Shown here: positions 9,322 to 46,834 of the stretch, piece by piece
How positions within the stretch are numbered: position 1 is the first letter of the stretch
Layout: each line of letters starts with the position of its first letter
Origin: a virus
Taxonomy: Duplodnaviria; Heunggongvirae; Uroviricota; Caudoviricetes
DNA: 64,000 bases
Virus record (IMG/VR): IMGVR_UViG_3300044680_000064
Coordinates: 9,632-73,631 of that record
Strand: one strand, 5' to 3'
The notes under the pieces: model-generated
What the model saw: the letters and a program-made list of their open reading frames with translations, nothing else
Told to the model about the DNA's origin: nothing
The model's database searches: none
Program-made: the position numbers and the translations under genes

Positions 9322-9614
9322 GCGACATGCAAAAGCTGGTCGTCTTTGAACGACGTTACGCTCTCACATTTTACGACGTCGATGATAAAGTGGGCCACGA
9401 ATTCGGCAAGACCGAGCCAAATGTTTCCTGTCACGAGAGCCACGGCGCCTGCGTGGATGAGGCAGTGCATCGCCATCAACCACCACCAGGGCATGCCAGG
9501 AAATGCCGTGTGCTTGCTTTTCCCTTTGGCCAAGAAGTCGCCCTGCAACGGAAAGTCGCATAGCGCGTGGGCGACCATGAGGTAGAAGAGCGTGCGAATC
9601 ATGACTTGAGCCAC
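9291..9614 (-). CDS. small integral membrane protein (DUF3307-like?)
   Basis: Hydrophobic segments. The family call from the HALCDFPLQ motif is a memory-based guess. Confidence 0.4.
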   Translation of the reverse strand: MAQVMIRTLFYLMVAHALCDFPLQGDFLAKGKSKHTAFPGMPWWWLMAMHCLIHAGAVALVTGNIWLGLAEFVAHFIIDVVKCESVTSFKDDQLLHVACKFLWSILA

Positions 9615-10729
9615 TTCAAGATGTTCTGTTCAGCATCACGCCACAACCCGCGCAATTGATTCGACGTCGTGGTCAAACCGTACCTCTTTCTGGCCTCGAA
9701 CAATACGGAACTGAATGGCGTTGCGTCTTTGATGCGCAACGCGAATTCCTTCTGGCTGGTCAAGGCCGCATGGTCGATCCACAACTCAAGTAGGTGAGCG
9801 TACTCTGTCTGTATCTTGGCCTTGAGCTTGTAGAACGCCTCAGAGCATTCCGTGAAGTAAACAAGCAATTCCGATTCCTCTCCCGTTAGCACAAACGGAA
9901 GAAGGTGCTTTGGATTGAATAGGTTGTCGCCTTCGCCGCGCATGCGGTGGAGAGCCAGGTAAGTGGGCGACTTGATCTTGAATCGCCGCCCCCACTTATC
10001 GCGGATGACGACGCCCTCGAACGTTGGATCGGTCTTGCTCTCCTCGGCGAGCCACTCCTGAATCTCTTCAATGCTGTTGAACTGGAATTGCTCAACTTGG
10101 TTCAAAAGCGGGCTACCGTGGTCTGGATGAAGCTCGTGAATCGGGATCTCTTCAACACCTCGGAATGTAGATAGCAGGTAAACCTTTGGCTCATCATATT
10201 TGCGGACGATTTTGTTCCACGGCGATACAAACTCGCAAACGTAAGTGCAGGCCGGATTAAGCACATTATTGATATACGCGGCAAAATACTCGAATCCCAT
10301 CGCCTCGCGGATCGCCTCTTCCCACGTCTTGTCGCATCCATTCCCGATTACGCCGTCAGCGAATGTGCCACGGGTGTTGATCCGCCACTGCCCCTTGTAG
10401 TTGTACAGCAGGACGAGCGAGCCATCGACCTTCTCGGTGCACGTGAAATAGCTGAAGTCGAATTCGGCCATCTCGGTCTGGAACTCACCCCAGTTGAAGA
10501 ATCGCGAAAAGCCCTTGGCGACCACGTTCCAAGTATCGAGCTCGAGGACCAAGCCGCGGCACTCTCGCACGATTGGATTGGTCTTCGGGCTGTCTATTTG
10601 GTCGTAGTTCAGGATGACCAGAGGCAAATCTATATGCAACAGGTTGCTGATGCCGAGCTCAGCTTCAAGATCGCCAAGCGTCTTGCCGCTGCGCAGGTAG
10701 AGCTGAACGTTCAAGAGTCTGTCGGTCAT
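9599..10729 (-). CDS. ATP-dependent RNA ligase, T4 Rnl1-like
   Basis: Motif I TEKVDGSLV. ECRGLVLELD and SRFFNWGE resemble T4 Rnl1 ECRGIMFEMD and EKFFNLNE. Confidence 0.7.
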   Translation of the reverse strand: MTDRLLNVQLYLRSGKTLGDLEAELGISNLLHIDLPLVILNYDQIDSPKTNPIVRECRGLVLELDTWNVVAKGFSRFFNWGEFQTEMAEFDFSYFTCTEKVDGSLVLLYNYKGQWRINTRGTFADGVIGNGCDKTWEEAIREAMGFEYFAAYINNVLNPACTYVCEFVSPWNKIVRKYDEPKVYLLSTFRGVEEIPIHELHPDHGSPLLNQVEQFQFNSIEEIQEWLAEESKTDPTFEGVVIRDKWGRRFKIKSPTYLALHRMRGEGDNLFNPKHLLPFVLTGEESELLVYFTECSEAFYKLKAKIQTEYAHLLELWIDHAALTSQKEFALRIKDATPFSSVLFEARKRYGLTTTSNQLRGLWRDAEQNILKWLKS

Positions 10730-11073
10730 TTCTTAGCGTCTCCTTTTGGTCCGGCTGGCTTTGGCATCCAGTGCGTCGGCTCGGGATCGGAGCTGCAATG
10801 CGAATTATTCACGAACCAGACTTTTCGACATCCTTCCGAGATCGGCGAATATCGGCCTATGCCGACTGTTAGGCCGCCATTAAACTTGCTACGATTGATA
10901 AAAACGAGCACCTCAGTCCCATCCTTTGGCGCTTCGGAAATCGGCCTCCACTCCGTCGCGGCGCGGAGAGAGTCGAGTTCGTCTGCCATGTCGCAAAGAA
11001 TACCAGAAGCCACTTTTTCGCCATCTACAAACAATCCCTGGGCACGGCTACGTGCTTCATTCGTGTCGATCAC
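10726..11073 (-). CDS. DUF551-like phage protein
   Basis: WRPISEAPKDGTEVLV motif. Confidence 0.45.
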   Translation of the reverse strand: MIDTNEARSRAQGLFVDGEKVASGILCDMADELDSLRAATEWRPISEAPKDGTEVLVFINRSKFNGGLTVGIGRYSPISEGCRKVWFVNNSHCSSDPEPTHWMPKPAGPKGDAKK

Positions 11074-11964: not shown

Positions 11965-12204
11965 CTACACGCCAGCCCCGCCATCAAGTGTCATTGTCGA
12001 TGATCGAATTATTTCGCCGATCTCTTCGAGATTCTCAAAGAACTTGAAAGAATCGCCGTCGCGAGGATCAGGCTTGTATCCTTCCGGCCACAAGCAAAAA
12101 GAGCCATCGTAAACACCGCCCTGAAGACCTACCTTTTTGCAGTTCTTCAATGCCATCTCTAAGCGGATCGCGGCGCTGCGCTGATTTTGTTTTGGAAGTG
12201 GCAC
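11965..12204 (-). CDS. hypothetical protein (79 aa)
   Basis: ORF immediately downstream of small zinc-ribbon gene A. Confidence 0.3.
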   Translation of the reverse strand: MPLPKQNQRSAAIRLEMALKNCKKVGLQGGVYDGSFCLWPEGYKPDPRDGDSFKFFENLEEIGEIIRSSTMTLDGGAGV

Positions 12205-12207
12205 ACT

Positions 12208-12372
12208 TCACCTACTTTCCGTTTCTGGCTTGTGTTTCCCGCATCCTTCTGACCGGTAAAACTCGCCGTCATCGTACCGTGTCGATCCACACTCGAATTC
12301 GTAGGTGCCAAGCTCCTCGGTCGGCAAATGCTCCTGGAAGGTGCAGGGCGAGGCACAGTGGGGGCAGGTCAT
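12208..12372 (-). CDS. small zinc-ribbon protein, paralog A (54 aa)
   Basis: MTCPHCASPC...FECGS. Lies inside repeat copy 1. Its ATG overlaps the upstream stop (ATGA). Confidence 0.4.
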   Translation of the reverse strand: MTCPHCASPCTFQEHLPTEELGTYEFECGSTRYDDGEFYRSEGCGKHKPETESR

Positions 12373-12374
12373 TT
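12232..12374. repeat. direct repeat copy 1 (~140 bp)
   Basis: About 90% identical to 12771-12912. Confidence 0.8.
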
Positions 12375-12749
12375 AATTGGCTTTCTGAGGTAGGGATACA
12401 TATCCATTGCGGCTATGAACTTTTCCGTAATAGAAGCGTCCATTTCTCTCAGCAACTCGGCCAGTCTTACATCTTGCTGGGCCGATTTGACTGCCCTCTT
12501 TTTCTTCGGATTCAAACTCAGCAATTCGTTCCTTGCCGACTGCATGACATTTAGAACATAAACAAATTTATCAACGCCTTCCTGACTCATGGCGTCTCCT
12601 TTTCTGGCCTGTGTACGCATTCGATAGCGGCGGGTTTTTCTGCCTTCATACCAGCCGCACTCCTCGCAGTTCCACGGCCCATATTGAACACCTACGCCAA
12701 TATCAACTTCATCGCGCCAGCACTGGCCGTTGCATTGCGGGCAATTCAT
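12369..12749 (-). CDS. zinc-ribbon protein (MNCPQCNGQC...)
   Basis: Internal ATG of ORF 12369-12893. The N-terminal extension shown in the ORF track falls in the repeat and is probably not coding. Confidence 0.35.
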   Translation of the reverse strand: MNCPQCNGQCWRDEVDIGVGVQYGPWNCEECGWYEGRKTRRYRMRTQARKGDAMSQEGVDKFVYVLNVMQSARNELLSLNPKKKRAVKSAQQDVRLAELLREMDASITEKFIAAMDMYPYLRKPIK

Positions 12750-12909
12750 CGTCACTTCCTCCGTCCTTTCGTTTCCCACATTCATCCGACTGGTAAAACC
12801 CGCCGTCATCGTACCGTGCCGATCCGCACTCGAATTCGTAGGTGCCCATCTCCTCGGTCGGCAAATGCTCCTGAAAGGTGCAGGGCGAGGCACAGTGGGG
12901 GCAGGTCAT
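12709..12909 (-). CDS. small zinc-ribbon protein, paralog B
   Basis: MTCPHCASPCTFQEHLPTEEMGTYEFECGS, inside repeat copy 2. Confidence 0.4.
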   Translation of the reverse strand: MTCPHCASPCTFQEHLPTEEMGTYEFECGSARYDDGGFYQSDECGKRKDGGSDDELPAMQRPVLAR

Positions 12910-13072: not shown

Positions 13073-13465
13073 TCATCCCTTCGTCTCCGTGGATGCGAGA
13101 GCAGCGCGAGCGCTGCGACACATCGGACATGCGACAAGCTGAGGGGTTTGATGATATTCCGTTACTTTGCCAGTCCCGCCGCATTCACGGCATCCGCCGA
13201 TCATTACTGAGAGTGCCGCCCGCAGCTTCTCATTCTCGTCGGTGAGGCGCTTGTGGTTGTTGACAGAATCCCTGATGATCTTGGCATTGTCAGGCGGCAT
13301 GCTTTGCAAGCCAATCTCCCGATCTGCCATATGAGCAATCAAAACACCGTTCTTGTCGCGAACGTCTATTCCGTCCACGAAAACGTCAAGCTGCCACGGT
13401 ATCGGCGCGTGTTTCACTTCTTCCGTCATCGCTTCCTCGCTTTCAGGGGTTCGATATGCCGTCAT
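13073..13465 (-). CDS. hypothetical protein with C-terminal CxxC pairs
   Basis: Internal ATG (MTAYRT) of ORF 13073-13621. Confidence 0.4.
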   Translation of the reverse strand: MTAYRTPESEEAMTEEVKHAPIPWQLDVFVDGIDVRDKNGVLIAHMADREIGLQSMPPDNAKIIRDSVNNHKRLTDENEKLRAALSVMIGGCRECGGTGKVTEYHQTPQLVACPMCRSARAALASTETKG

Positions 13466-13511
13466 TCTACTACCGCGGCTTGACGCCGTAACAGAAATTG
13501 GGTAAAGTTTT

Positions 13512-15179: not shown

Positions 15180-15189
15180 GTAGTAGAAT
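15180..15189 (+). promoter_or_regulatory. GTAGTAGAAT variant of the promoter motif
   Basis: 24 nt upstream of ATG 15213. Confidence 0.35.
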
Positions 15190-15991: not shown

Positions 15992-16001
15992 GTCGTAGAA
16001 T
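15992..16001 (+). promoter_or_regulatory. GTCGTAGAAT promoter-like motif
   Basis: About 30 nt upstream of ATG 16030, which has a GAGGGGG RBS. Confidence 0.45.
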
Positions 16002-19032: not shown

Positions 19033-19042
19033 GTCGTATAAT
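19033..19042 (+). promoter_or_regulatory. GTCGTATAAT promoter-like motif
   Basis: Upstream of two leader hairpins and the 19153 gene. Confidence 0.45.
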
Positions 19043-22216: not shown

Positions 22217-22486
22217 GTGAGCAAGAACATCGGCGCGATGATGTCGGCTCCGCGTGCGAATCGTCCGTCGAACAACAGGATCCGCGAGCAGCTGTTGATG
22301 ATGGTCAAGATGAACTTCGAAAACAAAGGCGAAGTTCCGTACATGAGCATCGACATTGACTGGGACGTTGTTCGCGATCTGCTTCACCCGAGCGTGGCGT
22401 CGCCCAGGCGTCCGATCAAGCGTAAGGCGAAGCGTCTCTCTGCGGGATGGGGGAATTTACTCACACCAAACGGATTCCGAAAGTAG
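22217..22486 (+). CDS. hypothetical basic protein (89 aa)
   Basis: ORF. Confidence 0.3.
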   Translation: MSKNIGAMMSAPRANRPSNNRIREQLLMMVKMNFENKGEVPYMSIDIDWDVVRDLLHPSVASPRRPIKRKAKRLSAGWGNLLTPNGFRK

Positions 22487-22693: not shown

Positions 22694-23077
22694 ATGACAG
22701 CACTTCTCAAGCTCATTTTCTTGACACTTTGTCTGCCCATTCTCGACCAGGGTCCGACGCCAGCGGTTCAATCCGACTCTGACCGATTCAGGATCACCGC
22801 AGTCGAAGCCAAGCGCAATTACGAATTCGCTCTGGAGCACTATAATTGGTGCCAACAAAACGTGCCGAATACGTTATGGGAGCGGCAAGCGCAGTATTGC
22901 TATCAAGCGTGGGATGCGTTGGACAATGTCAAGAGATTCTGTTTTGAAGTGCACGAAGAGCGTATGATTCCAGTAAACTTGGAGAGGCTGCGAGACTTGC
23001 TCGGTCAGGACGCATGGGCTATCGGTCGCATGCCGCCGCCTGCTCCCTATTGGTACTTCCAAGAGAAATCTCGCTGA
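22694..23077 (+). CDS. secreted protein (signal peptide)
   Basis: MTALLKLIFLTLCLPILDQG signal-like N-terminus. ORF 22661-23077. Confidence 0.4.
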   Translation: MTALLKLIFLTLCLPILDQGPTPAVQSDSDRFRITAVEAKRNYEFALEHYNWCQQNVPNTLWERQAQYCYQAWDALDNVKRFCFEVHEERMIPVNLERLRDLLGQDAWAIGRMPPPAPYWYFQEKSR

Positions 23078-24422: not shown

Positions 24423-25559
24423 TCAGTCTCCAATTTCGACTTCACCATACATCAAATCCACGGAGTCTTCTTTGCGACTCGAAAAATACTTCTCCAGCTC
24501 GTCGCGCAGCCCGATGCGATCCGGATTGAGTTGGTACACGCCAAACGAGTCGCGGTAAATATCCGTCATCGGATCGTATTGCTGCCGAGCGATGATATGC
24601 TGGCGCTCCCCGTAAAATCGGCGACGCTTGGATCCATGCCAGTGGTGAATGGCGTAGCAATCGACATAGCCAATGTTCTGCTTGCACGCGCGGAGCGCGC
24701 GATCTTGCCAGGCCGCGATCATTTCTCGGTAATGCGGATGACCACCAATCAACTCCGGGCGGTCCTTGCACAATTCCGAATGACCAACTAGGCCAAGAGT
24801 CATATAGTAGTCGGCGGACCCAAGCAAGCAAATGTCGATCATCCCGCCGACAGCATTGAAGGCGTCACGCCGGAATGCCCAGGCGAGGCCGACGGCACCT
24901 ATGCCGCCACTCTGGCGACGGCCTTTCGAGCCCATCTTTAGCTCACAACCGCTGTCGCCACTATCGCCGCCGGCCGCTCCCATCTTCAATGCTGCCTCCA
25001 GCGAGCCTCCAGGCAGGCGATTGGTGCAGTATTTGTACGCGAAGCCGAACTCATGCGACAACGGCCGGTGGGAAGGCGAGACATTGGTGTACGAGCTGAA
25101 AGGCTGGACAAAGGCGTGGTGCTGAAGCGCGTGAATGACTTCAATGCCAAAGTCGCTTCTCGTGAATAGGACGTCGGCGTCGATCCATGCGCCGTATTTC
25201 CACGTCGGATCGAATTTCGACACGCACAAATTAATCTGATTTTCTTTGTGCCACAGCACGTGCCCAGTGCGCAGTTGGAGATGATTCGGATTCTGCGAGT
25301 TCGTGACTTCGAACGGTCGATCGCCGTAGGCCAGCTCGCAGACGTAGACTTCAAGATTCTGAAGTTTCGTCAGGTGCTGATAGCAGTCATTGAAAAGCGA
25401 GATGCGCGACCTGAAGCGATAGGGGTTGGAATACACCATCGCAACGTGAAGAGTCTGGTCCGGCGCCCAGCGGCGATGCGCGGCGGTGCCGTTCTGGTGA
25501 TCGACGACGACCGAGGCTTGATGCGCAGCGTGATGGTGATCGTAATTAGCAGCTTCCAT
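24423..25559 (-). CDS. hypothetical protein, possibly GT-A-like glycosyltransferase (DXD)
   Basis: 378 aa, translationally coupled to the BCS1-like gene. WIDADVLF DXD-like motif. The family call is weak. Confidence 0.35.
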   Translation of the reverse strand: MEAANYDHHHAAHQASVVVDHQNGTAAHRRWAPDQTLHVAMVYSNPYRFRSRISLFNDCYQHLTKLQNLEVYVCELAYGDRPFEVTNSQNPNHLQLRTGHVLWHKENQINLCVSKFDPTWKYGAWIDADVLFTRSDFGIEVIHALQHHAFVQPFSSYTNVSPSHRPLSHEFGFAYKYCTNRLPGGSLEAALKMGAAGGDSGDSGCELKMGSKGRRQSGGIGAVGLAWAFRRDAFNAVGGMIDICLLGSADYYMTLGLVGHSELCKDRPELIGGHPHYREMIAAWQDRALRACKQNIGYVDCYAIHHWHGSKRRRFYGERQHIIARQQYDPMTDIYRDSFGVYQLNPDRIGLRDELEKYFSSRKEDSVDLMYGEVEIGD

Positions 25560-25803
25560 TCACGGCACTCTCTTGTATTGTGGATGCTTGTTGTTTTGGT
25601 AGCCTTACGCCGCATCGGCCGCAAAAATCCGCTACTTGCTTGTGGCCTTCTCGCTTGCATACGCATTCCGGGCAGGTGAAAACAATGCAATCGCCGACCG
25701 TGAATCGGTTCCAGCACTCAACGCATCGGACTGTGTATTCGCCAATGGGCATGTCAAGTTCCGCAACACAAAAACTTTTGACTACTGCTCGCACGAATCG
25801 CAC
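25546..25803 (-). CDS. zinc-finger protein (85 aa)
   Basis: CVEC...CPEC...CGRC pattern. Confidence 0.3.
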   Translation of the reverse strand: MRFVRAVVKSFCVAELDMPIGEYTVRCVECWNRFTVGDCIVFTCPECVCKREGHKQVADFCGRCGVRLPKQQASTIQESAVNGSC

Positions 25804-26112
25804 TCGTCATCGTCCCACGACGAATCGTCGCCGTCATCCTCGTCGTCTGGCACCGGGCGAGCGTGTATCGAGACCATTTCAAACGCTCCGAAAAACGGCG
25901 GCGGTTCGACGCTATCGTACATTCGCTCTCGGACAACGGCACGGAGATCGACGCTCATGCCATATTCTCGATTGTCTTAGGCCGGCCGCGACCGAGTCAA
26001 GCCGGGGAGTCAAAGAGGTGTGGTCGCGGCCGGCATTCGCATGTAATTTTGTTCACTCCCCGGTTCAGAAATAGTAATCTCGCGCGGCTGAAGTGTCAAG
26101 CCCGCTTGCGCG

Positions 26113-26122
26113 GTCGTAGAAT
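26113..26122 (+). promoter_or_regulatory. GTCGTAGAAT promoter-like motif
   Basis: 20 nt upstream of the AAGGAG RBS and ATG 26142. Confidence 0.45.
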
Positions 26123-26141
26123 AGAAAGGAAAGGAGCGATT

Positions 26142-26702
26142 ATGGACAAGTGCATGTGCCCTCATTGCGGCGAAGTCTTCGGTCGCCTTCTCGATAGCTT
26201 GATTCCGACGCACTCTTTCCCGAAACCGACACGAGCTGTCTGCCCAGGGTCAGGACAGGCACCGCGCAATCCAGACACTGATCGAAGGCCGCTATGGAAG
26301 GACGAGAATGCGCACGCGCTCGCGAACGTGCAAAAAGCCAAGCGTGACAACTTGGCTTTCACTTTTAACTCAGTCAAGAAGCCGATACCGCCGCAATGCT
26401 CTGCGATATTTCCCGCGGAGCGGCGCCGTACCGATCGACGTCGCCGAGTTATCGAGATCTTCTTCCCGCCAGAGGCAACACGGTACGACCGCCGCTTTCA
26501 GTTGCTCAAACGACTCGATAAGAGATCGTTCGTCTGGCACTGTGCAGATGACGAGATTCGGATGCGGTTGTGTTGGTTCGCCGAAGGCGTGAGTGGCAGC
26601 GATTGCGCCGTGGACTGCTTGAACTGTTCGAATTGGCTCGGGAAGGTCCGCCCTTACGAGCACGTAGACGTGTGCCAGTTTAACCTGCTCATCCATCTAT
26701 AG
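26142..26702 (+). CDS. Cys-rich hypothetical protein (186 aa)
   Basis: Strong RBS plus the promoter motif. It overlaps the antisense PTH2-like ORF, so one of the two may be spurious. Confidence 0.35.
   Translation: MDKCMCPHCGEVFGRLLDSLIPTHSFPKPTRAVCPGSGQAPRNPDTDRRPLWKDENAHALANVQKAKRDNLAFTFNSVKKPIPPQCSAIFPAERRRTDRRRRVIEIFFPPEATRYDRRFQLLKRLDKRSFVWHCADDEIRMRLCWFAEGVSGSDCAVDCLNCSNWLGKVRPYEHVDVCQFNLLIHL
26370..26696 (-). CDS. peptidyl-tRNA hydrolase PTH2-like ORF (108 aa)
   Basis: VYVLVRADL....VQAVHGA and SIGTAPL resemble PTH2 VVRxDL..GK.AAQ..HA and AIGP. Size fits PTH2. Immediately downstream of the tRNA pair on the same strand. Confidence 0.3.
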   Translation of the reverse strand: MDEQVKLAHVYVLVRADLPEPIRTVQAVHGAIAATHAFGEPTQPHPNLVICTVPDERSLIESFEQLKAAVVPCCLWREEDLDNSATSIGTAPLRGKYRRALRRYRLLD

Positions 26703-26745
26703 CATGACACGATCCTCAAAGTGGATACTGATCGTAAAACACAAG

Positions 26746-26815
26746 AGCCCGGTGCATGAGTTGAACATGCGACCTACGGATTAAAATCCGCCGCTCTACA
26801 CTGAGCTAACCGGGC
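26746..26815 (-). tRNA. degenerate tRNA-Lys(UUU)-like gene with a 6-nt anticodon loop (possible pseudo-tRNA or variant tRNA)
   Basis: Clover-leaf GCCCGGT/ACCGGGC acceptor, GCTC/GAGC D-stem, GCATG-TTCAACT-CATGC T-arm. Anticodon arm GCGGA-UUUUAA-UCCGU, with the loop one nt short of E. coli tRNA-Lys CUUUUAA. D-loop lacks GG. Confidence 0.5.
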
Positions 26816-26820
26816 TTAAG

Positions 26821-26844
26821 GGTCTGGGTTTGCAGCCCAGACCC
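26821..26844. other. perfect 8-bp hairpin between the two tRNAs (processing or structural element)
   Basis: ggtctggg-tttgcagc-ccagaccc. Confidence 0.4.
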
Positions 26845-26930
26845 GAAGAACCCTACTGTCAGGTCTTGCCTGATGCCAGGTTCTCGACCATTCGGGCACC
26901 GCACTGAAGGTCAAGTCATGCGAGGCCCAG

Positions 26931-27004
26931 AACCGGCAGCGGGATTTGAACCCGCGACAAGAACGTTTAGAGCGTTCCACTCTGGCCAGCTGAGTTATGC
27001 CGGT
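26931..27004 (-). tRNA. amber suppressor tRNA (anticodon CUA)
   Basis: Canonical 74-nt clover-leaf: acceptor ACCGGCA/UGCCGGU, U8, D-arm ACUC-AGCUGGCCA-GAGU, anticodon arm GAACG-CUCUAAA-CGUUC (U33, CUA, A37), variable loop UUGUC, T-arm GCGGG-UUCAAAU-CCCGC. Confidence 0.85.
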
Positions 27005-27018
27005 ATCAGTCTTTCGCC

Positions 27019-27028
27019 ATTCTACGAC
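27019..27028 (-). promoter_or_regulatory. GTCGTAGAAT promoter-like motif driving the tRNA cluster
   Basis: Ends 15 nt upstream of the suppressor tRNA 5' end. Confidence 0.45.
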
Positions 27029-27083
27029 CGTTCCCAAAAATCGGCAAGTTCTTTCCGCTTTTCCTGACAGCGGGCCGTCATCC

Positions 27084-27093
27084 GTCGTAAGAT
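27084..27093 (+). promoter_or_regulatory. GTCGTAAGAT variant motif, divergent from the tRNA promoter
   Basis: In the intergenic region upstream of the replication gene. Confidence 0.25.
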
Positions 27094-27366
27094 GTTTGAA
27101 CTGACCATCGTACAGCCATCGTAAACGCGCAAGCCTGAGCCCGCGCTCGGGATTGACGCCGCGCAGGTGTACAAGATATCATTTGTTGATTCGTCCGACA
27201 CCGCCTCTCGAACCGGCGCTCGGATACGTCACGGGATAAGGATCAGAAACACATGACCAGCGACTGAATCCTTCCCAACTGCCGTCCTTGAGATCACCTT
27301 ATCGTCTCCTGGAACGGGTTCGACAGTTGGGCGGGATTCTCTCGCTGGTCAAGAAGGCACACCCCA

Positions 27367-28479
27367 ATGCCAAGGCCGACACTTTTTGAGCATCCCAAGT
27401 TTCACAGGCTCGTCCATGAGCTAAAACTTCCCAGGCCATACGTCCTTGGTCTTCTGGAGTTCCTTTGGCGTCCTGGATACGCATCTGGGAACCCGATTAT
27501 TGGTGACGCAATCGACGTTGAACTGGTCGCCGAATGGCCGGGAACGCCGAACGCACTTGTAACGGAACTCGAAAAACTCCGTTTCATCGACCGTTTGGAA
27601 GATGGTCGTTATCAGATTCATGACCTCTTCGACCACGCTCCGGAGTATGTTTCGGAGCGAAGAAAGCGCGAAAACGAACGCAAAGTGGATAAGACTTGCG
27701 CTTTCTGTTCCGAAATATACCGAAACTCAGACCCAAGATCGACTTACTGTTCATCAAAGTGCAGGTCTGCGGCATGGAGAAAGTCGAATTGTGACGGAAA
27801 TGACACGGAAAATCACGGAAAGAACGAACCGAGCGCAGGTGACGGAACGCAAACGGAAAATCACGGCGCTCTTACTCCCGCGCGCGCTCGCGCTCTTAAA
27901 GAAGAAGAAATACATCTTGCTGCGCAAGATGTCTGCTCGGAGCCGATCAAAGCATCGGCTGCCGAGCCGATGGCTGCCGGCGAGTCCCAAGAGTCGTCCA
28001 AGGTGGTGATGTCTTTCCCGGTGGTTGGCAAGAAGCCAAATAGCGGTTTGACGGAATGGCCTCTCACCGAGGCCAAGGTGGCGGAGTATCAAGAATCTTT
28101 TCCTGGAGTTGACGTGATGGTAGAATGCCGAAAGGCTCGCCAGTGGTGCATTGACAACCCAACGAAACGAAAGACTGTCCGTGGAATGCCAAAGTTTCTC
28201 AGCGGCTGGCTCGCGCGGCAACAAGACCGCGGATCGACTCCAGCGCTTCAAGTCCAAGCGACACCGAAACCGCAAGGCCCGAATGGTCCAGCGCCGGCAG
28301 GCAGATTTCTGACTCCAGATGAGGAAAAACACTATTCGGGAAAATTGGACGAAAATACGCAGCTCCCCTACTGGAAAATCTGCACATGGCCTGGGTATAA
28401 AGAAAAATGCACTTGGCCCTGGTGCGTCGAGCAGCGCCGAAAACTTGCCGAAGAAAATCAAAAAAGAGACGTAGCATGA
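27367..28479 (+). CDS. putative replication initiation or replisome-organizer protein
   Basis: C-terminal TEWPLTEAKVAEYQESFPGVDVMVE...NPTKRKTVRGMPKFLSGWLARQQDR motif, typical of phage replication proteins. CxxC finger in the middle. Confidence 0.45.
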   Translation: MPRPTLFEHPKFHRLVHELKLPRPYVLGLLEFLWRPGYASGNPIIGDAIDVELVAEWPGTPNALVTELEKLRFIDRLEDGRYQIHDLFDHAPEYVSERRKRENERKVDKTCAFCSEIYRNSDPRSTYCSSKCRSAAWRKSNCDGNDTENHGKNEPSAGDGTQTENHGALTPARARALKEEEIHLAAQDVCSEPIKASAAEPMAAGESQESSKVVMSFPVVGKKPNSGLTEWPLTEAKVAEYQESFPGVDVMVECRKARQWCIDNPTKRKTVRGMPKFLSGWLARQQDRGSTPALQVQATPKPQGPNGPAPAGRFLTPDEEKHYSGKLDENTQLPYWKICTWPGYKEKCTWPWCVEQRRKLAEENQKRDVA

Positions 28480-28952
28480 ATCCATTCGCTGACAAGTTGA
28501 CACTAAAATTCGACGGCTCTTGCGAACCGCGCAATCCGGGCGGCGTGGCGACGTATGGATACGTCATCACGGCACCGGATGGCTCAATCGTCAAAGAGAC
28601 CGGAGGACTCGTCTGCAAGGGCGCCGGCGCGACGAACAACGTGGCTGAATATTCAGCTCTCGGCTTCGCGTTGCGATTCCTTGGCGACGAGCAGTGGCTC
28701 GGCAGTCTCGATATTTTTGGCGACTCTCAACTGGTCATCAAACAACTCACCGGAGAATGGGCGTGCAACAAAGAACATCTGCAACGACTGCGCGCCAGAT
28801 GTTTGGAGTTGCTCGATGTCGTCGCCAAGGGAAAATGGACGGCAACGTGGATACCGAGAGAGCAAAACAAACGGGCCGACAAGCATAGCCAAGAGGCTTA
28901 TGAACGCGAGACGGGATTGACATATCCCGAGAGAAGGAAAAAAACAAAATGA
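28476..28952 (+). CDS. ribonuclease H (RNase HI-like)
   Basis: FDGSCEPRNPGG...AEYSALGFALRFL...GDSQLVIKQLTGEW...REQNKRADKHSQ. ATGA overlap with the upstream gene. Confidence 0.75.
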   Translation: MNPFADKLTLKFDGSCEPRNPGGVATYGYVITAPDGSIVKETGGLVCKGAGATNNVAEYSALGFALRFLGDEQWLGSLDIFGDSQLVIKQLTGEWACNKEHLQRLRARCLELLDVVAKGKWTATWIPREQNKRADKHSQEAYERETGLTYPERRKKTK

Positions 28953-30784
28953 CGGATCAGGTGGGTTCAGCTATGCAAAGAGTGAATCTCGACAACATTC
29001 CAAAGTCACTGACAGAGCTACGTCAGTGGGTCGTCTGGAAAATGGCCAGGCGCTCTCCAGACGACAAAGAAGAAACAAAACTGCCGTTCCAAATTAATGG
29101 CGATTTTGCGGAAGCGGACAATCCCGAAACATGGTGTAGTTGGGGCTCGGCAAGATCGGCATATCAGTACGGCGATTACCGCGGCGTCGGATTCGAGTTC
29201 AGTGTCGATGATCCGTTTTGCGGTGTTGATTTGGACAAGTGCAGAAATCCAAAGACGGGCAAGGTCTCCGAATGGGCGAGAGAAATAATTCTGAAATTTG
29301 CGAGCTATGCCGAAGTCTCTCCGTCCGAAACTGGTGTCAAGATTTTCTGTCGTGGCAAATCGCCATTCGACCGCGGGCGAAAAAAGAAATTCCCGGAACT
29401 CGAAAAAGTCTGCGATGATCCGAAGGACGTTGCGATCGAAATCTACGATCAGCGGCGCTACTTCGCAGTCACCGGCTGGCGTTTGGGCGGCGTTCCGCAC
29501 GAACCGACCGAGTGCCAGGAACATCTCGAATGGCTGAAGTCGAAATATTTCAATGACGATCCGAAACCAGTTCAAGACTTCCGGAGCGGCGATGCAGTCT
29601 TCGAACGCGCTCGCAAGTATCTCGAAAAACTGCCGGCCGCTGTAAGCGGCTCCAACGGCCACGGCGCCACATTCCACGCTGCCTGCGTTCTCGTTCTCGG
29701 CTTTGAATTATCCGAGAGCGAAGCGATGTCACTCATGCGAGAATACAATGCACGCTGCCAACCATCGTGGTCTGAACGTGAATTGGAACACAAAGTAAAA
29801 TCGGCGTTTAAGCAACCAGGCCAGAGAGGGTTTCTTCGTAATTCGGCACCGGACAAATGGCAGGGTATTTCGGTGCCGGATTATGCTGCATCTCTGCCGC
29901 CCGAGCCGAAGACGACGACGTTGGTTGAAGCGACCAAGGGATACATCGAGTCGATTCGAAATGGGCAAGTTCCTCTCATCAGCACGAGCATTCCGGATTT
30001 GGATTTTGCGTTGAGTGGTGGACTTGAAAGAAGCGAAATGGTGATCTTCGCAGCCCGCCCTTCACATGGAAAATCACTTGCCGCATTGCAACTCGTCCAC
30101 CATTGGACCGCAACGGGAATTCCATGTGCCATTGTGAGCGAAGAAATGTCGCCGATGATGCTCGGCAAGCGCACTTTGCACTTTGTCAGCGCTCTGCATC
30201 AAGAGCACTGGCATCACGAAATTTGCCAACTCGAACACGAGATCGCCCAGTACGAAACAACGCATGCGCCGTGTCCAATTTTCGAGTCATGCGGCACGGC
30301 ACAAAAGGCAGTTGAATGTATCGAGCGATCGGTCGAAGAACATGGTGTTCGTTGCGCAGTGGTTGACTACGCGCAGCTTTTGCGATCGCCAGGTAAAACA
30401 CGATACGAGCAGGTTACAAACACGAGTATCGCCCTTCGTCAGTTAGCCAATCGCTGCAAAATAACGCTGTTGGTTTTGTGCCAACTCAATCGCGAGATCG
30501 AGCACCGGCCTACATTCACGCCGACATTGGCTGACATTAAAGAAACCGGCCAGCTCGAGCAGGACGCTGACGTTGTCGTTGGATTGTCATGGCCGTACAA
30601 GATGAACACGGAGGAGCCGCCAGATAAATACCAATTCCACATTCTGAAAAATCGCAACCGAGGAATCCGAGAAGCGTGTGTCAATTGCCGACTGGTTGCT
30701 GACCGCCAGATGATCCTCGATCCGCATCCAGGCCAATTCGGAATCGAGGCCGCTCATCCGCACCAACAAGGCATTCAGTTCTAA
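28949..30784 (+). CDS. bifunctional primase-polymerase (PrimPol) fused to DnaB-like replicative helicase
   Basis: N-terminal PrimPol-like LRQWVVWK...LPFQINGDFAEADNPETW. C-terminal RecA-like core with FAARPSHGKSLAALQL and VVDYAQLL. Confidence 0.8.
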   Translation: MTDQVGSAMQRVNLDNIPKSLTELRQWVVWKMARRSPDDKEETKLPFQINGDFAEADNPETWCSWGSARSAYQYGDYRGVGFEFSVDDPFCGVDLDKCRNPKTGKVSEWAREIILKFASYAEVSPSETGVKIFCRGKSPFDRGRKKKFPELEKVCDDPKDVAIEIYDQRRYFAVTGWRLGGVPHEPTECQEHLEWLKSKYFNDDPKPVQDFRSGDAVFERARKYLEKLPAAVSGSNGHGATFHAACVLVLGFELSESEAMSLMREYNARCQPSWSERELEHKVKSAFKQPGQRGFLRNSAPDKWQGISVPDYAASLPPEPKTTTLVEATKGYIESIRNGQVPLISTSIPDLDFALSGGLERSEMVIFAARPSHGKSLAALQLVHHWTATGIPCAIVSEEMSPMMLGKRTLHFVSALHQEHWHHEICQLEHEIAQYETTHAPCPIFESCGTAQKAVECIERSVEEHGVRCAVVDYAQLLRSPGKTRYEQVTNTSIALRQLANRCKITLLVLCQLNREIEHRPTFTPTLADIKETGQLEQDADVVVGLSWPYKMNTEEPPDKYQFHILKNRNRGIREACVNCRLVADRQMILDPHPGQFGIEAAHPHQQGIQF

Positions 30785-30808: not shown

Positions 30809-30818
30809 GTCGTAGAAT
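30809..30818 (+). promoter_or_regulatory. GTCGTAGAAT promoter-like motif
   Basis: 23 nt upstream of ATG 30841. Confidence 0.45.
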
Positions 30819-32684: not shown

Positions 32685-35492
32685 ATGGCGATCCCGCAGA
32701 AAAAACTCGATACACTTCGTCTCATCATCGCGGATCCAAAAACGGACCCGAAACTTCGCGCCGATGCTGAAGCATGTCTCGTCCGTGAGGCCACATTCGA
32801 AGAACGCTGTCCGTGGGCTTGCTACGAAGGCAGGCCGATCGAGTACGCGGAGCGCTTTCACGGCTTCCGCCTCACGCAAGATCAGAAGAAGATGTGCACG
32901 TATCTTCTTCAGCCGCCATATCGACTGCACGTTGACTCGGCCCACGGAGTTGGCAAATCGTGGCTGATGGCACTTCTGACAAACTGGTTTTTTGATACCT
33001 ACGATCCAGGCGTCGCGATCACCACCGGCCCGAGCGACAAATCGGTTCGCCAAAACATCTGGGGTCGCGTTCGTGAGATGCGTCAGGACATCAAGAAGAA
33101 GATCGCCAACTATCCATTCGCGATGATGCCGAGCAGCCCCGAGATGAAGACTGGAGAGTCGCATTGGGCCGTTGGCCAGGTCGCAGCGAAAGCCGAAGCA
33201 TTCCAGGGGAAACACTGGGAATATATGTTCTTCGGATTCGACGAGTCCGAGGGCTTGCCGGAGATTTATTTTGAGACCACCACGTCGATGTTCAAGTCGA
33301 ATGGGAAGCATTTCTGGTTCTCGATTTGCAATCCGCTATCGACCAGCTCTCCGGTGTATCTGAACACGCAAAAGATCGACTACGTCGGCCAAATGCTTTG
33401 GCGGCTCATGTCCGTGTCGGCGTTGAATCACGACAACATCAAAATCCAGATGAACGATGAAGGCAACGACACCGGCGTTGACCCGCCGATACCAGGCGCT
33501 GTGACGCTCGACCAGATTGACGACTGGATCACGGAGTACGGCTGCGACAAACTTGGACAAGGCGAGAAGCCTCAGCCGGGCGACTTCCAGTGGCGACCCA
33601 AGAAAACTAACGCGTGCCCGGAATGCGGATTGATATTTCAAAATCCAGTGGGCGGAGTTTTCCCGAAGCACGGGCAATCGCCGACCAAGCCTGATGGCTG
33701 CGAAGGAACTGGGCTGATAGCCGGTAATTGGTGGCGCCCGTCAGGGCTTGCCGAATCACGCATTCTTGGACGGCGCCCGAGCCACGGCGTCGAGGGTATT
33801 TGGAGCTCTGCGCTCTGGGAGTATTGCGAGAATCGGACAGAAGAGACTGCGATCCCATTTCCGCTTGACGAATTCCCGGAGTTCGGCTGCTTTGTCGCAG
33901 GAACTCTTGTGGAAACAAAATCTGGTCCTGTGCCGATAGAACAACTGAATGCTGGCGACATGGTTCTGACGCGGCAGGGATACAAGCGAGTGAAGGCGGC
34001 TTTTTGCACCGGGATACAACAAACACACACCCTGGTCTGCGAAAACGGACAAACTCTGACTGGGACAGGTAATCATCCAATTTGGGACGGCCACGGGTGG
34101 AAATCTCTTGGTTCGTTGACGAATCATGATATAATTTACACATGGAAACCAGCGAATACGAATACATTGAATATGACGGAATTGTTTGGCATAGAAAACC
34201 GCAAGCGAAACGGATATGGGAGCGAAACTATTTCCGCGGATACATTCCAAGACGCGGCGATATTCCCAGACGAAAACACTATCCGCTCCATCGGTATGTT
34301 TGGGAAAAATTCAACGGGCCGATTCCGAAAAGCCTCTGCATCCACCATAAGGACGAAGACACGTCCAATAACGACATCACTAATCTCGAACTACTCACGC
34401 GATCAGAGCACAGTAAGATTCATTCGGACAACTGGCGAGTCGTCCGAACAAGTGAATGTGAATTTTGCGGAAAAGAGTATCAGCACATTAGTGTGCCGTC
34501 TCGATTCTGTTCCAACAAATGCAAATGCGCATGGCGAAGAAAAAACAAAGTTGACAATGAGACCAGAACATGCAGCGAATGCTCAGTTTCATTCTCGTGT
34601 TGCAAATACGAACCAGCCACAACTTGTTCCCGTTTCTGTACGAACAAGAAATCTTGGAAAACTCGAAGAGGTCTACAACATAACAGTTGAGGATTGTCAC
34701 GAGTATTTCGCCAATGGTGTCCTCGTTCATAATTGTGACGTAGCTCGCTTTGGAGATGATGCAACTGGCTTCCACGGGCGCTGGGGCGGCGTCTCGCTGG
34801 TTCACGATCAGAAGTACGGATGGGACACAAACCAGATCGCCGGCCGACTCAAGGAAATGTGCGACGAGATGGCGCAGTTTGCAAACGCGGTGCGATTAGC
34901 AGCAGCGGTCAAGGCCGGCACGGAAAAGAACTTCAAGCCGTTCTATCCGCATCAATTTCCAGTCAAGATCGACTGCACTGGCGGCTGGGGCGGCGGCGTG
35001 CGCGACAAACGAGACAATTACAACTTCATCGAGATCAACTCATCCAGCACGGCCTATGCGGACTTGAAATATCCGAACATCCGTAGCGAGCTTTGGTTCC
35101 AAGTTGCCGAGAGGGCGCGGATGGGTCTTCTTGATTTGTCGCGGCTTGATGAGGCCGATCGGCAGGCGCTGAAGATCGAAGCGCTAGCGGTCAAATATTC
35201 GTTTGATTCGGCTGGAAGAAAGGTCGTCGAAAAGAAAGATGAGACGAAGAAAAGACTCAAACGATCTCCGGACAATGCCGACAGTTTTTGCCTAGCATTT
35301 TTGCATCACGGCCAAGCAGTTCCGCACATGGTCGGTCAAGAAATGACATCATCGCGCGGCGGACATGAAACTCTGGCGGCGAAGTTCGGAACGCTAGGGC
35401 GAGGCCCAAACTCAACTCGTGATCGCCACACGTTCGACTATGGCGCACAGCCGAAACCGGAACGCCGGTTCAAGACACTTGGAAGGCGTTAG
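32685..35492 (+). CDS. terminase large subunit containing an intein
   Basis: ATPase Walker A SAHGVGKS and Walker B FFGFDESEG. C-terminal nuclease motifs DVARFGDDATG, IDCTGGWGGG, SPDNADSF. Interrupted by Hint blocks. TAG stop. Confidence 0.8.
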   Translation: MAIPQKKLDTLRLIIADPKTDPKLRADAEACLVREATFEERCPWACYEGRPIEYAERFHGFRLTQDQKKMCTYLLQPPYRLHVDSAHGVGKSWLMALLTNWFFDTYDPGVAITTGPSDKSVRQNIWGRVREMRQDIKKKIANYPFAMMPSSPEMKTGESHWAVGQVAAKAEAFQGKHWEYMFFGFDESEGLPEIYFETTTSMFKSNGKHFWFSICNPLSTSSPVYLNTQKIDYVGQMLWRLMSVSALNHDNIKIQMNDEGNDTGVDPPIPGAVTLDQIDDWITEYGCDKLGQGEKPQPGDFQWRPKKTNACPECGLIFQNPVGGVFPKHGQSPTKPDGCEGTGLIAGNWWRPSGLAESRILGRRPSHGVEGIWSSALWEYCENRTEETAIPFPLDEFPEFGCFVAGTLVETKSGPVPIEQLNAGDMVLTRQGYKRVKAAFCTGIQQTHTLVCENGQTLTGTGNHPIWDGHGWKSLGSLTNHDIIYTWKPANTNTLNMTELFGIENRKRNGYGSETISADTFQDAAIFPDENTIRSIGMFGKNSTGRFRKASASTIRTKTRPITTSLISNYSRDQSTVRFIRTTGESSEQVNVNFAEKSISTLVCRLDSVPTNANAHGEEKTKLTMRPEHAANAQFHSRVANTNQPQLVPVSVRTRNLGKLEEVYNITVEDCHEYFANGVLVHNCDVARFGDDATGFHGRWGGVSLVHDQKYGWDTNQIAGRLKEMCDEMAQFANAVRLAAAVKAGTEKNFKPFYPHQFPVKIDCTGGWGGGVRDKRDNYNFIEINSSSTAYADLKYPNIRSELWFQVAERARMGLLDLSRLDEADRQALKIEALAVKYSFDSAGRKVVEKKDETKKRLKRSPDNADSFCLAFLHHGQAVPHMVGQEMTSSRGGHETLAAKFGTLGRGPNSTRDRHTFDYGAQPKPERRFKTLGRR
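33888..34733 (+). mobile_element. intein (282 aa) inserted at the start of the TerL nuclease domain
   Basis: Block A CFVAGTLVET, block B TGTGNHPIW, blocks F/G VYNITVEDCHEYFANGVLVHN followed by the C-extein Cys (CDVARFGDD). Confidence 0.75.
34142..34690 (+). CDS. HNH homing endonuclease encoded inside the intein in an alternate frame
   Basis: HHKDEDTSNNDITNLELLTRSEH HNH motif plus Cys-rich C-terminal zinc-ribbon repeats. Frame differs from the TerL/intein frame. TGA stop 3 codons upstream and TATAAT at 34130-34135. Confidence 0.6.
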   Translation: METSEYEYIEYDGIVWHRKPQAKRIWERNYFRGYIPRRGDIPRRKHYPLHRYVWEKFNGPIPKSLCIHHKDEDTSNNDITNLELLTRSEHSKIHSDNWRVVRTSECEFCGKEYQHISVPSRFCSNKCKCAWRRKNKVDNETRTCSECSVSFSCCKYEPATTCSRFCTNKKSWKTRRGLQHNS

Positions 35493-38273: not shown

Positions 38274-38283
38274 GTCGTATAAT
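38274..38283 (+). promoter_or_regulatory. GTCGTATAAT promoter-like motif
   Basis: 40 nt upstream of ATG 38324. Confidence 0.45.
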
Positions 38284-46138: not shown

Positions 46139-46834
46139 ATGCCGAACAAGAGCGCCCTACCAGAGGCCACTATGCGCCAATGCCGAAAGTGTTTTACTGA
46201 GAAACCAATTGATCGTTTTGCGAAGGCCAGAGGTCGGGATGGTTCGCCATGCCGTCGTCATACTTGCATGGACTGCGACAATGCTAGAAAGCGAGACATT
46301 CGTTGCGATCCGATCAAAGGAGAACGCAAGAGACTTCTTGGTCGCTTGAACGAAAAGAGGCTTCGAAGAACTCCGATTGGATGGTGCAAAAGAGGCGTAT
46401 TAAGCGCTCGCTGGAGAGCTTTGCAGGCCGGGATCGCTTTTACGATAACGTGGGAGGATGTCTTCGCGGTCTACCCTGCTGATGGAATTTGCCCAGCGCT
46501 CGGGATCGCGTTCCAACTCGGAGATCGCAGCCCATATAATCCGTCAATTGACCGTATAAATCCGAAGTTTGGCTACATTTCTGGAAACATTGCCGTTATC
46601 AGTAGACGGGCCAACGCGATCAAGCAGGATGCGACCTTTGAAGAATTAGAGAGAATCGCTCTTTGGCTGAAAGGCAAAATCGATCGGGACGTGGCCAGTG
46701 GCAAGGTGATCTTAGCTCGCGGCCTTGCAGTGGCAGGGCTGAAGCCTGTGGAGGGATCGACCACTATCGGCGAGCATCGTGCAAGCCGACAAGCCGGCCC
46801 GTTGAAGCAGGAAGTCCATGCAACGCATTGCTAG
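46139..46834 (+). CDS. HNH homing endonuclease
   Basis: CRRHTCMDCDN zinc finger and SIDRINPKFGYISGNIAVISRRANAIK HNH core. TAG stop. Confidence 0.6.
   Translation: MPNKSALPEATMRQCRKCFTEKPIDRFAKARGRDGSPCRRHTCMDCDNARKRDIRCDPIKGERKRLLGRLNEKRLRRTPIGWCKRGVLSARWRALQAGIAFTITWEDVFAVYPADGICPALGIAFQLGDRSPYNPSIDRINPKFGYISGNIAVISRRANAIKQDATFEELERIALWLKGKIDRDVASGKVILARGLAVAGLKPVEGSTTIGEHRASRQAGPLKQEVHATHC

Follow-up and report, generated by a model that had tools for sequence, protein, structure and literature searches.

A phage tRNA gene with a CUA anticodon, paired with a Lys-like tRNA of shortened anticodon loop, in a phage that uses the standard code

The locus described here raises the question of what a phage might do with a tRNA gene whose anticodon, CUA, pairs with the stop codon UAG, if the phage itself ends some of its genes with that codon. 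The gene lies in the window, i.e. the whole stretch of 64,000 nucleotides that was analysed. The reading we prefer, and to which we give about an even chance, is that of an expressed, UAG-pairing phage tRNA which, if active, would be a low-level general amber suppressor in a standard-code phage and would have no dedicated targets. The coordinates of the features are collected in Table 1.

The window is phage DNA with a GC content of 55%. It encodes an intein-bearing large terminase subunit (TerL), a small terminase (TerS), a primase/DnaB-like helicase, an RNase H-like gene, a sigma factor, a BCS1-like AAA ATPase and large structural ORFs. Since the same proteins were found on a 103,868-bp JGI contig and on Logan contigs of 81,310 and 17,757 bp, the genome size is about 100-104 kb. 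The sequence analysed comprises 79,258 assembled bp (window position -5390 to 73868), and about 20-25 kb of the genome lies outside it. The window covers two Logan contigs, with the break at about 11992-12882. No nucleotide match to the window was found among 50,697 cultured-phage records, a megablast search with the 14 kb around the tRNA found no match in cultured phages, and the putative capsid-region protein had no protein match in cultured phages either. The likely host phylum is Planctomycetota, to which almost all of the best genomic primase relatives and of the named BCS1-like ATPase relatives belong. The planctomycete taxa among the homologues are Thermoguttaceae, Pirellulales, Schlesneria and Frigoriglobus. 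The TerL gene (32685-35492, plus strand) encodes 935 amino acids, with Hint and intein-splicing domains at approximately residues 401-687, and it has a TAG stop.

Table 1. Features of the tRNA locus and other genes discussed in the text (window coordinates)
Feature	Position	Strand	Method or remark
tRNA, anticodon 5'-CUA-3'	26931..27004	-	ARAGORN; Rfam RF00005; cloverleaf fold
Inter-tRNA spacer, 115 nt, structured	26816..26930	-	fold
Second tRNA-like gene, Lys(UUU)-like body	26746..26815	-	ARAGORN '???' with 2-nt anticodon; Rfam 58.8 bits
Promoter-like site TTGCCG-17-TAGAAT	27019..27047	-	sigma-70-like consensus scan
GTCGTAGAAT box sites, examples	13464-13473 (-); 15180-15189; 15992-16001; 19033-19042; 26113-26122; 27019-27028 (-); 30809-30818; 38274-38283
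Primase/DnaB-like helicase	28949-30784
T4 Rnl1-family RNA ligase	9599..10729	-	Pfam PF09511, E 1.5e-19; adjoins DUF3307 ORF
Second RNA ligase, PF09414	21162..21959	+	Pfam E 9.3e-9; PHROG 548 'RNA ligase'

The tRNA gene is real, far beyond chance. A preliminary description, made from the sequence alone, had placed a tRNA on the minus strand and had proposed an ARAGORN run on the window as a check. Both ARAGORN and Rfam detect the gene, and ARAGORN recovers the CUA anticodon in a call at 26930-27004 on the minus strand (printed as cta, at position 35). The Rfam family RF00005 matches 26931-27004 on the minus strand with 63.1 bits as compared to a gathering score of 29 (E 2.4e-11, calculated for 64 kb, both strands and 4227 families), and the 74 nucleotides span model positions 1-71 of 71. 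An independent Logan assembly, from sample SRR35360315, contains the identical tRNA sequence.

The anatomy of the molecule is that of an ordinary elongator tRNA, and the structural details listed in the preliminary description (the stems, U8, GG, U33, A37 and the loops) are all correct. Read from the 5' end, the acceptor strand ACCGGCA is followed by UA (U8 A9), which lies between the acceptor and D stems, by the D arm consisting of ACUC, the 9-nt loop AGCUGGCCA with G18 G19, and GAGU, by a single G (G26), and by the anticodon arm consisting of GAACG, the loop CUCUAAA, and CGUUC. The 5-bp anticodon stem thus carries a 7-nt loop (C32 U33 C34 U35 A36 A37 A38), and the anticodon is CUA as claimed earlier. 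The 3' part consists of the 5-nt variable loop UUGUC, which permits a G15-C48 pairing, the T arm (GCGGG, the loop UUCAAAU with U54-U55-C56, and CCCGC), the second acceptor strand UGCCGGU, which forms 7 Watson-Crick pairs with the first, and the discriminator U73; CCA is absent from the gene. In other words, the stems are 7, 4, 5 and 5 bp long and the conserved positions U8, A14, G18G19, U33, purine 37 and U54-U55-C56 are all present. Minimisation of the free energy gives the cloverleaf (-27.8 kcal/mol, z -3.05).

ARAGORN labels the gene 'tRNA-Pyl', which is its naming convention for a CUA anticodon. The hallmarks of tRNA-Pyl are a 6-bp anticodon stem, a 3-nt variable loop, a small D loop without G18G19, a single nucleotide between the acceptor and D stems, and the lack of a T-psi-C consensus. 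A tRNA-Pyl identity was rejected on the 5-bp anticodon stem, the 5-nt variable loop, the 9-nt D loop with GG, U8 A9 and the T loop UUCAAAU. No family of Pyl synthesis or PylS was seen among the Pfam matches of the scanned genes.

It is less straightforward to say which amino acid the tRNA would carry. In a nearest-neighbour comparison its identity ties between Thr, Gly, Arg and Asn at 0.68-0.69, and a similarity comparison with about 300 tRNAs gives ties among Thr, Gly, Arg, Asn, Val and Trp, i.e. no clear isotype. The best cultured-phage matches are a tRNA-Gly(UCC) and a tRNA-Ile. The CUCUAAA loop is one substitution away from the Trp (CUCCAAA) or Lys-CUU (CUCUUAA) loops, and the 5-nt variable loop rules out the bacterial Tyr, Ser and Leu types. 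The 19-nt D arm with its A10-U25 stem is identical in ten IMG/VR sequences, 7 of which ARAGORN calls tRNA-Thr(UGU), some of them with U73, and the acceptor xCCGGCx together with U73 resembles one tRNA-Thr(CGU). Taken together, U73, A1-U72 and the A10-U25 D stem match no E. coli identity set. When E. coli tRNAs receive a CUA anticodon, it is mostly LysRS or GlnRS that captures them, via U35. According to the T5 GenBank record, amber-anticodon forms of the Lys, Gly, Gln, His, Ser, Ala and Tyr bodies do suppress in E. coli, whereas the T5 tRNA-Thr with an amber anticodon is not a suppressor there; charging of the window tRNA is therefore not to be assumed. The same D arm was also seen in a viral stretch (L250, 8100-8185) that has an insertion of about 19 nt in place of the anticodon arm and gets no ARAGORN call; it may represent either another disabled tRNA or a tRNA interrupted by an insertion or intron.

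The gene is probably transcribed from what appears to be a standard phage promoter. The preliminary description had noted a promoter motif 15 nt upstream; the motif held up and turned out to be a recurrent box, and the distance is in fact 14 nt. The box GTCGTAGAAT, at 27028-27019 on the minus strand, forms the -10 region of the promoter-like site. It has 16 copies with at most 1 mismatch in the window as compared to 3.1 expected, a number that none of 100 shuffled sequences reached. Most copies are intergenic, 8-100 nt upstream of start codons, and they often stand in the context GCG-GT(C/A)GTAGAAT-G; a -35 element is not conserved among them. This distribution suggests that GTCGTAGAAT is probably a promoter -10 element of the phage.

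The CUA tRNA is one of two tRNA genes in all in the 79 kb. The other, with a Lys-like body, lies on the same strand, 115 nt downstream. The spacer between them folds into three hairpins (-52.4 kcal/mol, z -3.87) and includes a perfect 9-bp stem, GGGUCUGGG/CCCAGACCC, 4 nt before the second tRNA. The spacer has no match to an Rfam family, a permissive Rfam scan of 25500-27500 gave nothing besides the two tRNAs, and no terminator was found between the two genes. We infer that both tRNAs and the spacer form one dicistronic precursor. An HNH-like ORF (27367-28479) adjoins the operon; HNH-type neighbours are common at mobile tRNA islands.

The Lys-like gene and the two RNA ligases of Table 1 had been passed over in the preliminary description; both open a non-decoding reading of the locus. 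The body of the gene gives blastn matches to annotated phage tRNA-Lys genes. Its anticodon loop, UUUUAA, is only 6 nt long because nucleotide 32 is missing, which Rfam shows as an anticodon-loop deletion, and in the fold the arm can close into a 6-bp stem with a UUUA tetraloop. It also has a 6-nt D loop, U73 and no encoded CCA. Judged by this loop, it is not a tRNA that could act as an ordinary decoder. A literature search on 6-nt anticodon loops in phage tRNAs found no report. As for the ligases, T4 uses the Rnl1 family to repair tRNA-Lys cut by PrrC. A polynucleotide kinase/phosphatase was not recognised among the Pfam matches.

If the phage depended on UAG decoding, its genes should be the place to see it. 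The stop codons of the 112 genes in the 79 kb (the calls of the Logan assembly plus calls added for uncovered stretches) are TGA in 80, TAA in 21 and TAG in 11 cases, and TAG is thus the rarest stop. The 91 genes called in the Logan assembly give the same picture (TGA 62, TAA 19, TAG 10). The earlier statement that TGA dominates is borne out (66 of 89 window genes), and the statement that TAG ends only four genes is too low, since TAG is the stop of 9 of the 89 window genes and of 11 of the 112. Among the genes closed by TAG are those for TerL, the BCS1-like ATPase and the sigma factor, the HNH-like ORF at 46139, whose stop was checked, and several small early ORFs, including a pair that flanks the tRNA operon.

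The preliminary description had also argued that there is no genome-wide recoding of TAG, and in the 79 kb we reach the same conclusion. When TAG was read as sense (code 15), the summed coding score fell from 2605 to 2443 and the coverage from 0.783 to 0.758. Every TAG in the 79 kb was scanned for a same-frame coding signal on both flanks, and none was convincing. One candidate, the TAG at 22484 (ORF 22217-22486, with a 196-codon continuation), was rejected: the continuation is a separate gene, which has its own RBS and begins with an ATG at 22694, its first residues resemble a signal peptide, and the DNA between the ORFs is not coding-like. The large intact ORFs, i.e. the packaging and most structural genes, end in TGA or TAA. 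Read-through of the TAG stops would add tails of 1-180 codons (median 29), e.g. 31 aa to TerL, 29 aa to the BCS1-like ATPase and 16 aa to the sigma factor. The coding scores of the tails are negative, and the length of the extension after TAG does not differ from that after TGA or TAA (Mann-Whitney p 0.87). Nor are TAG stops unevenly distributed between early (8 of 69) and late (3 of 43) genes (p 0.53). From the negative in-frame-TAG, coding-score, tail and timing tests we conclude that, within the 79 kb, the phage keeps to the standard code, and that neither adaptation to amber suppression nor dependence on it is detectable there.

The conservation of the operon was examined at related loci. 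A primase/helicase search gave 80 metagenome, 80 viral and 80 genome loci, 30 of which were scanned for tRNA; no related tRNA was present at these 30 primase-linked loci, nor in the contigs of the closest primase homologues or of the P0119 relatives. The tRNA is likewise absent from L258, which carries a BCS1 ATPase relative of 76% identity, and from L254-L257, L259-L261 and L262. Two planctomycete genomes have tRNA-Arg(CCU) genes near the primase, which are unrelated to the CUA tRNA. We note that the primase is a mobile module whose neighbours differ in each phage, i.e. a poor synteny anchor. Neither a 27-nt pattern of the T arm and acceptor nor a pattern of the anticodon arm had a match in IMG/VR. 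Among the relatives sampled, the tRNA operon thus looks specific to the lineage. The composition profile gives no sign of horizontal acquisition, as the tRNA region is the same as its flanks.

The kind of tRNA, as opposed to this particular gene, is common. A single scan of IMG/VR with the pattern AGAG-N7-CUCUAAA-N5-UNGUC-N4-GUUC returned 42 stretches, all 42 with an ARAGORN-confirmed CUA tRNA (48 genes in total), many of them on contigs of 150-480 kb and often solitary or duplicated. In most of these stretches the ORF coverage under the standard code is 75-94%, a crude measure, and TAG is a rare stop; the gain from reading TAG as sense is no greater than that of a TGA control. The closest relatives of the window gene are found in L272 (75% identity; U73) and in L297 and L309 (A1-U72); the A10-U25 D arm is shared, and they are not orthologues. 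In other words, CUA tRNAs in phages are known and common, and the window gene adds one more example.

The Lys-like neighbour led to a smaller set of loci. A pattern for Lys-like tRNAs without nucleotide 32 had five matches in IMG/VR, one of which is a true case. It lies on a 434,688-bp contig (L270, IMGVR_UViG_3300038463_000730), has the GCCCGG acceptor and U73 as in the window, and is located 1 kb from a CUA tRNA with an identical CUCUAAA loop and U73. The cluster (9604-10808) consists of four Rfam-positive tRNAs and two tRNA-like sequences (~9923-9999 and 10463-10540), and in all members except the CUA tRNA the anticodon arm is closed or has a 6-nt loop. Normal tRNAs are absent from the 10 kb on each side, and the local code is the standard one. 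Duplicated CUA tRNAs beside tRNA-like sequences also occur in L278 (7700-8020), where two arms are capped by UUCG, and in L290 (1673-3600), where the loops have 3 and 6 nt and the acceptor ACCCGGU is similar to the GCCCGGU of the window Lys-like gene. In total, a CUA tRNA is associated with a disabled-arm tRNA-like sequence at 4 of 43 CUA loci. By a rough count, tRNAs labelled '???' by ARAGORN make up 5 of ~125 near CUA tRNAs and ~2 of 152 elsewhere, which is not a significant difference. We consider the association a lead that was noticed after the fact.

Some further observations were made at these and other loci. The genes adjoining the L270 cluster encode an Rv2179c-like 3'-5' exoribonuclease, a DUF7873 protein, a NUDIX/cytidylyltransferase fusion and a radical SAM protein, and an ORF with a RyR domain lies inside the cluster. 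In the Tunturiibacter phage Tunturi_5 (PP885688.1, ~239.5-256 kb; L263 and L271) ARAGORN finds 31 tRNAs and GenBank annotates none there. One of them (L271, 5427-5503) has a 6-nt anticodon loop, and the group adjoins annotated genes for a tRNA nucleotidyltransferase and a tRNA-splicing ligase.

According to the suppressor reading stated at the outset, the GTCGTAGAAT-class promoter would give a dicistronic precursor comprising the CUA tRNA, the structured spacer and the Lys-like tRNA, which would be trimmed by host RNase P and 3' processing enzymes. The CCA, which the gene does not encode, would be added by the host CCA-adding enzyme, and the tRNA would be charged by some host aminoacyl-tRNA synthetase that tolerates a CUA anticodon; no synthetase, release factor or CCA-adding enzyme was seen among the Pfam matches of the scanned phage genes. 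The charged tRNA would then compete with RF1 at UAG codons, and the consequence would be tails of 1-180 residues on about 10% of the phage proteins as well as on host proteins ending in UAG. Since no phage gene in the 79 kb needs UAG as a sense codon, the effect would be limited to such C-terminal tails. The 7-nt loop with U33, A37 and the A36-A37-A38 context, the promoter box, the recovery in two assemblies, the rarity of TAG as a stop and the commonness of this kind of tRNA argue for the suppressor reading; the missing footprint, the absence from the sampled related loci, a body without a clear isotype and a non-decoding operon partner argue against it. The value of the tRNA to the phage would likely lie in the buffering of amber mutations, in a pre-recoding state such as has been suggested for standard-code relatives of recoded phages, or in a perturbation of the host, and a programmed read-through product is unlikely.

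Other readings of the same facts have to be weighed against this one. It is conspicuous that the operon partner is a Lys(UUU)-like molecule whose 6-nt loop can close to a tetraloop, and that it retains the UAAUC element beside the cleavage site of AriB (PMC12409363). A possible reading is that the two tRNAs do not decode at all and that they act, alongside the two RNA ligases, one of them of the T4 Rnl1 family, against host immunity that targets tRNAs, either as decoys or sponges or as nuclease-resistant ligands of PrrC, PARIS-AriB or retron-type anticodon nucleases. Non-productive binding by viral tRNAs was raised as a possibility by the authors of the PARIS study (PMC12409363). This reading agrees with the fact that the sole true Lys-like match without nucleotide 32 in IMG/VR lies 1 kb from a CUA tRNA in L270, and with the arms closed by 3-6-nt loops, including UUCG, at the CUA loci of L278 and L290. 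However, the ordinary 7-nt anticodon loop of the CUA tRNA is unnecessary for a decoy, the association is restricted to a few CUA loci with no significant enrichment of '???' tRNAs, the link to the jumbo-phage cluster is post hoc and a single case, and the presumed host has no known defence nuclease. We therefore regard a non-decoding role of the pair as rather unlikely. Quite improbable, in our estimate, is its generalisation, namely that the nonsense-anticodon tRNAs of standard-code phages are a recurrent and so far undescribed class of phage 'off-code' tRNA modules, which would be decoys or inhibitors of tRNA-cleaving immune nucleases and not decoders. As part of that proposal, the anticodon arms would have been inactivated deliberately, whether through a stop anticodon, through a 6-nt loop or through closure into a tetraloop, the modules would be transcribed from phage promoters, and the RNA ligases would be the repair arm.

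It may also be that the gene has no role, i.e. that it is a neutral passenger or relic, recently acquired from another phage or derived by mutation from a sense tRNA. The absence from all sampled relatives and of a close homologue in IMG/VR, a genome without a suppression footprint, a damaged tRNA as neighbour and the adjoining HNH-like ORF, typical of mobile tRNA islands, are what such a passenger would lead one to expect. We nevertheless hold it to be improbable, as the four stems are intact without a mismatch, the nucleotides of the tertiary interactions are complete, the operon has its own copy of the phage promoter box, the base composition equals that of the flanks, and the abnormality in both tRNAs is limited to the anticodon region, unlike random decay. 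A dedicated decoder, finally, would serve the in-frame TAGs of a recoded block, made up for example of tail-fibre or lysis genes and located in the 20-25 kb by which the genome (100-104 kb) extends beyond the sequence analysed, and there is a precedent in recoded phages whose in-frame stops are restricted to late or lysis genes (bioRxiv 10.1101/2021.08.26.457843). But the 79 kb already contain the packaging and most structural genes as large intact ORFs ending in TGA or TAA, and TAG is a real stop in 11 genes including TerL, so this is highly improbable. The low-level, general amber suppressor stays our preferred reading.

As a suppressor, the CUA tRNA is one more example from a GC-rich, uncultured lineage that probably infects Planctomycetota. 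It is a data point for the idea that a suppressor is acquired before recoding, given that TAG is the rarest stop here and is still a stop. If CUA tRNAs and anticodon-defective tRNA-like sequences were linked across phages, this would indicate that tRNA-shaped RNAs serve phages outside translation, against host defences, and such a link might explain the 'useless' suppressor tRNAs of many standard-code phages.

Finally, the locus can be compared with known systems. With tRNA-Pyl the window tRNA shares the CUA anticodon only; it has none of the structural hallmarks of that molecule. The PARIS (AriB)-evading tRNAs of T5, and its 'tRNA-like stable RNAs of unknown function', are similar in that the sequence of the anticodon arm departs from the host type, in a phage exposed to pressure from tRNA nucleases, and in that the tRNAs concerned are of the Lys and Thr types. 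In T5, however, the variants have kept their sense anticodons and stand in for the host tRNAs that are cleaved, whereas in the window pair one tRNA reads a stop codon and its partner with a 6-nt loop cannot replace tRNA-Lys. A nuclease-evading replacement tRNA of the T5 type (PMC12409363) was therefore rejected as an explanation: CUA reads no sense codon, and the loop of the partner has 6 nt.

The recoded phages (crAss-like, Lak, Agate and Jade; code 15 or 4) are similar in having a class I tRNA with a nonsense anticodon that is encoded in a standard-code part of the genome and is presumably charged by a host synthetase. Their GC content is low, TAG has almost disappeared as a stop, and their late or lysis genes contain numerous in-frame TAGs, whereas the phage described here has 55% GC, ends about 10% of its genes with TAG and has no in-frame TAG in 79 kb. 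Suppressor tRNAs have been described both in recoded phages and in a standard-code relative, there as 'potentially preceding code change' (bioRxiv 10.1101/2021.08.26.457843), and the Klebsiella phage phiKp24 has a tRNA-Sup gene (tRNA-Sup-TTA) in a report that does not mention an alternative genetic code (PMC8386662). The closest parallel is with such standard-code carriers, i.e. the Agate-clade relative with a TGA suppressor in Borges et al., phiKp24 and the 42 IMG/VR contigs, which are likewise without evident recoding and for whose suppressor tRNAs a pre-recoding state, the buffering of nonsense mutations and host takeover have been proposed. The window tRNA differs from theirs in its sequence (at most 75% identity), in belonging to a lineage without a cultured relative and in having an anticodon-defective, Lys-like partner.
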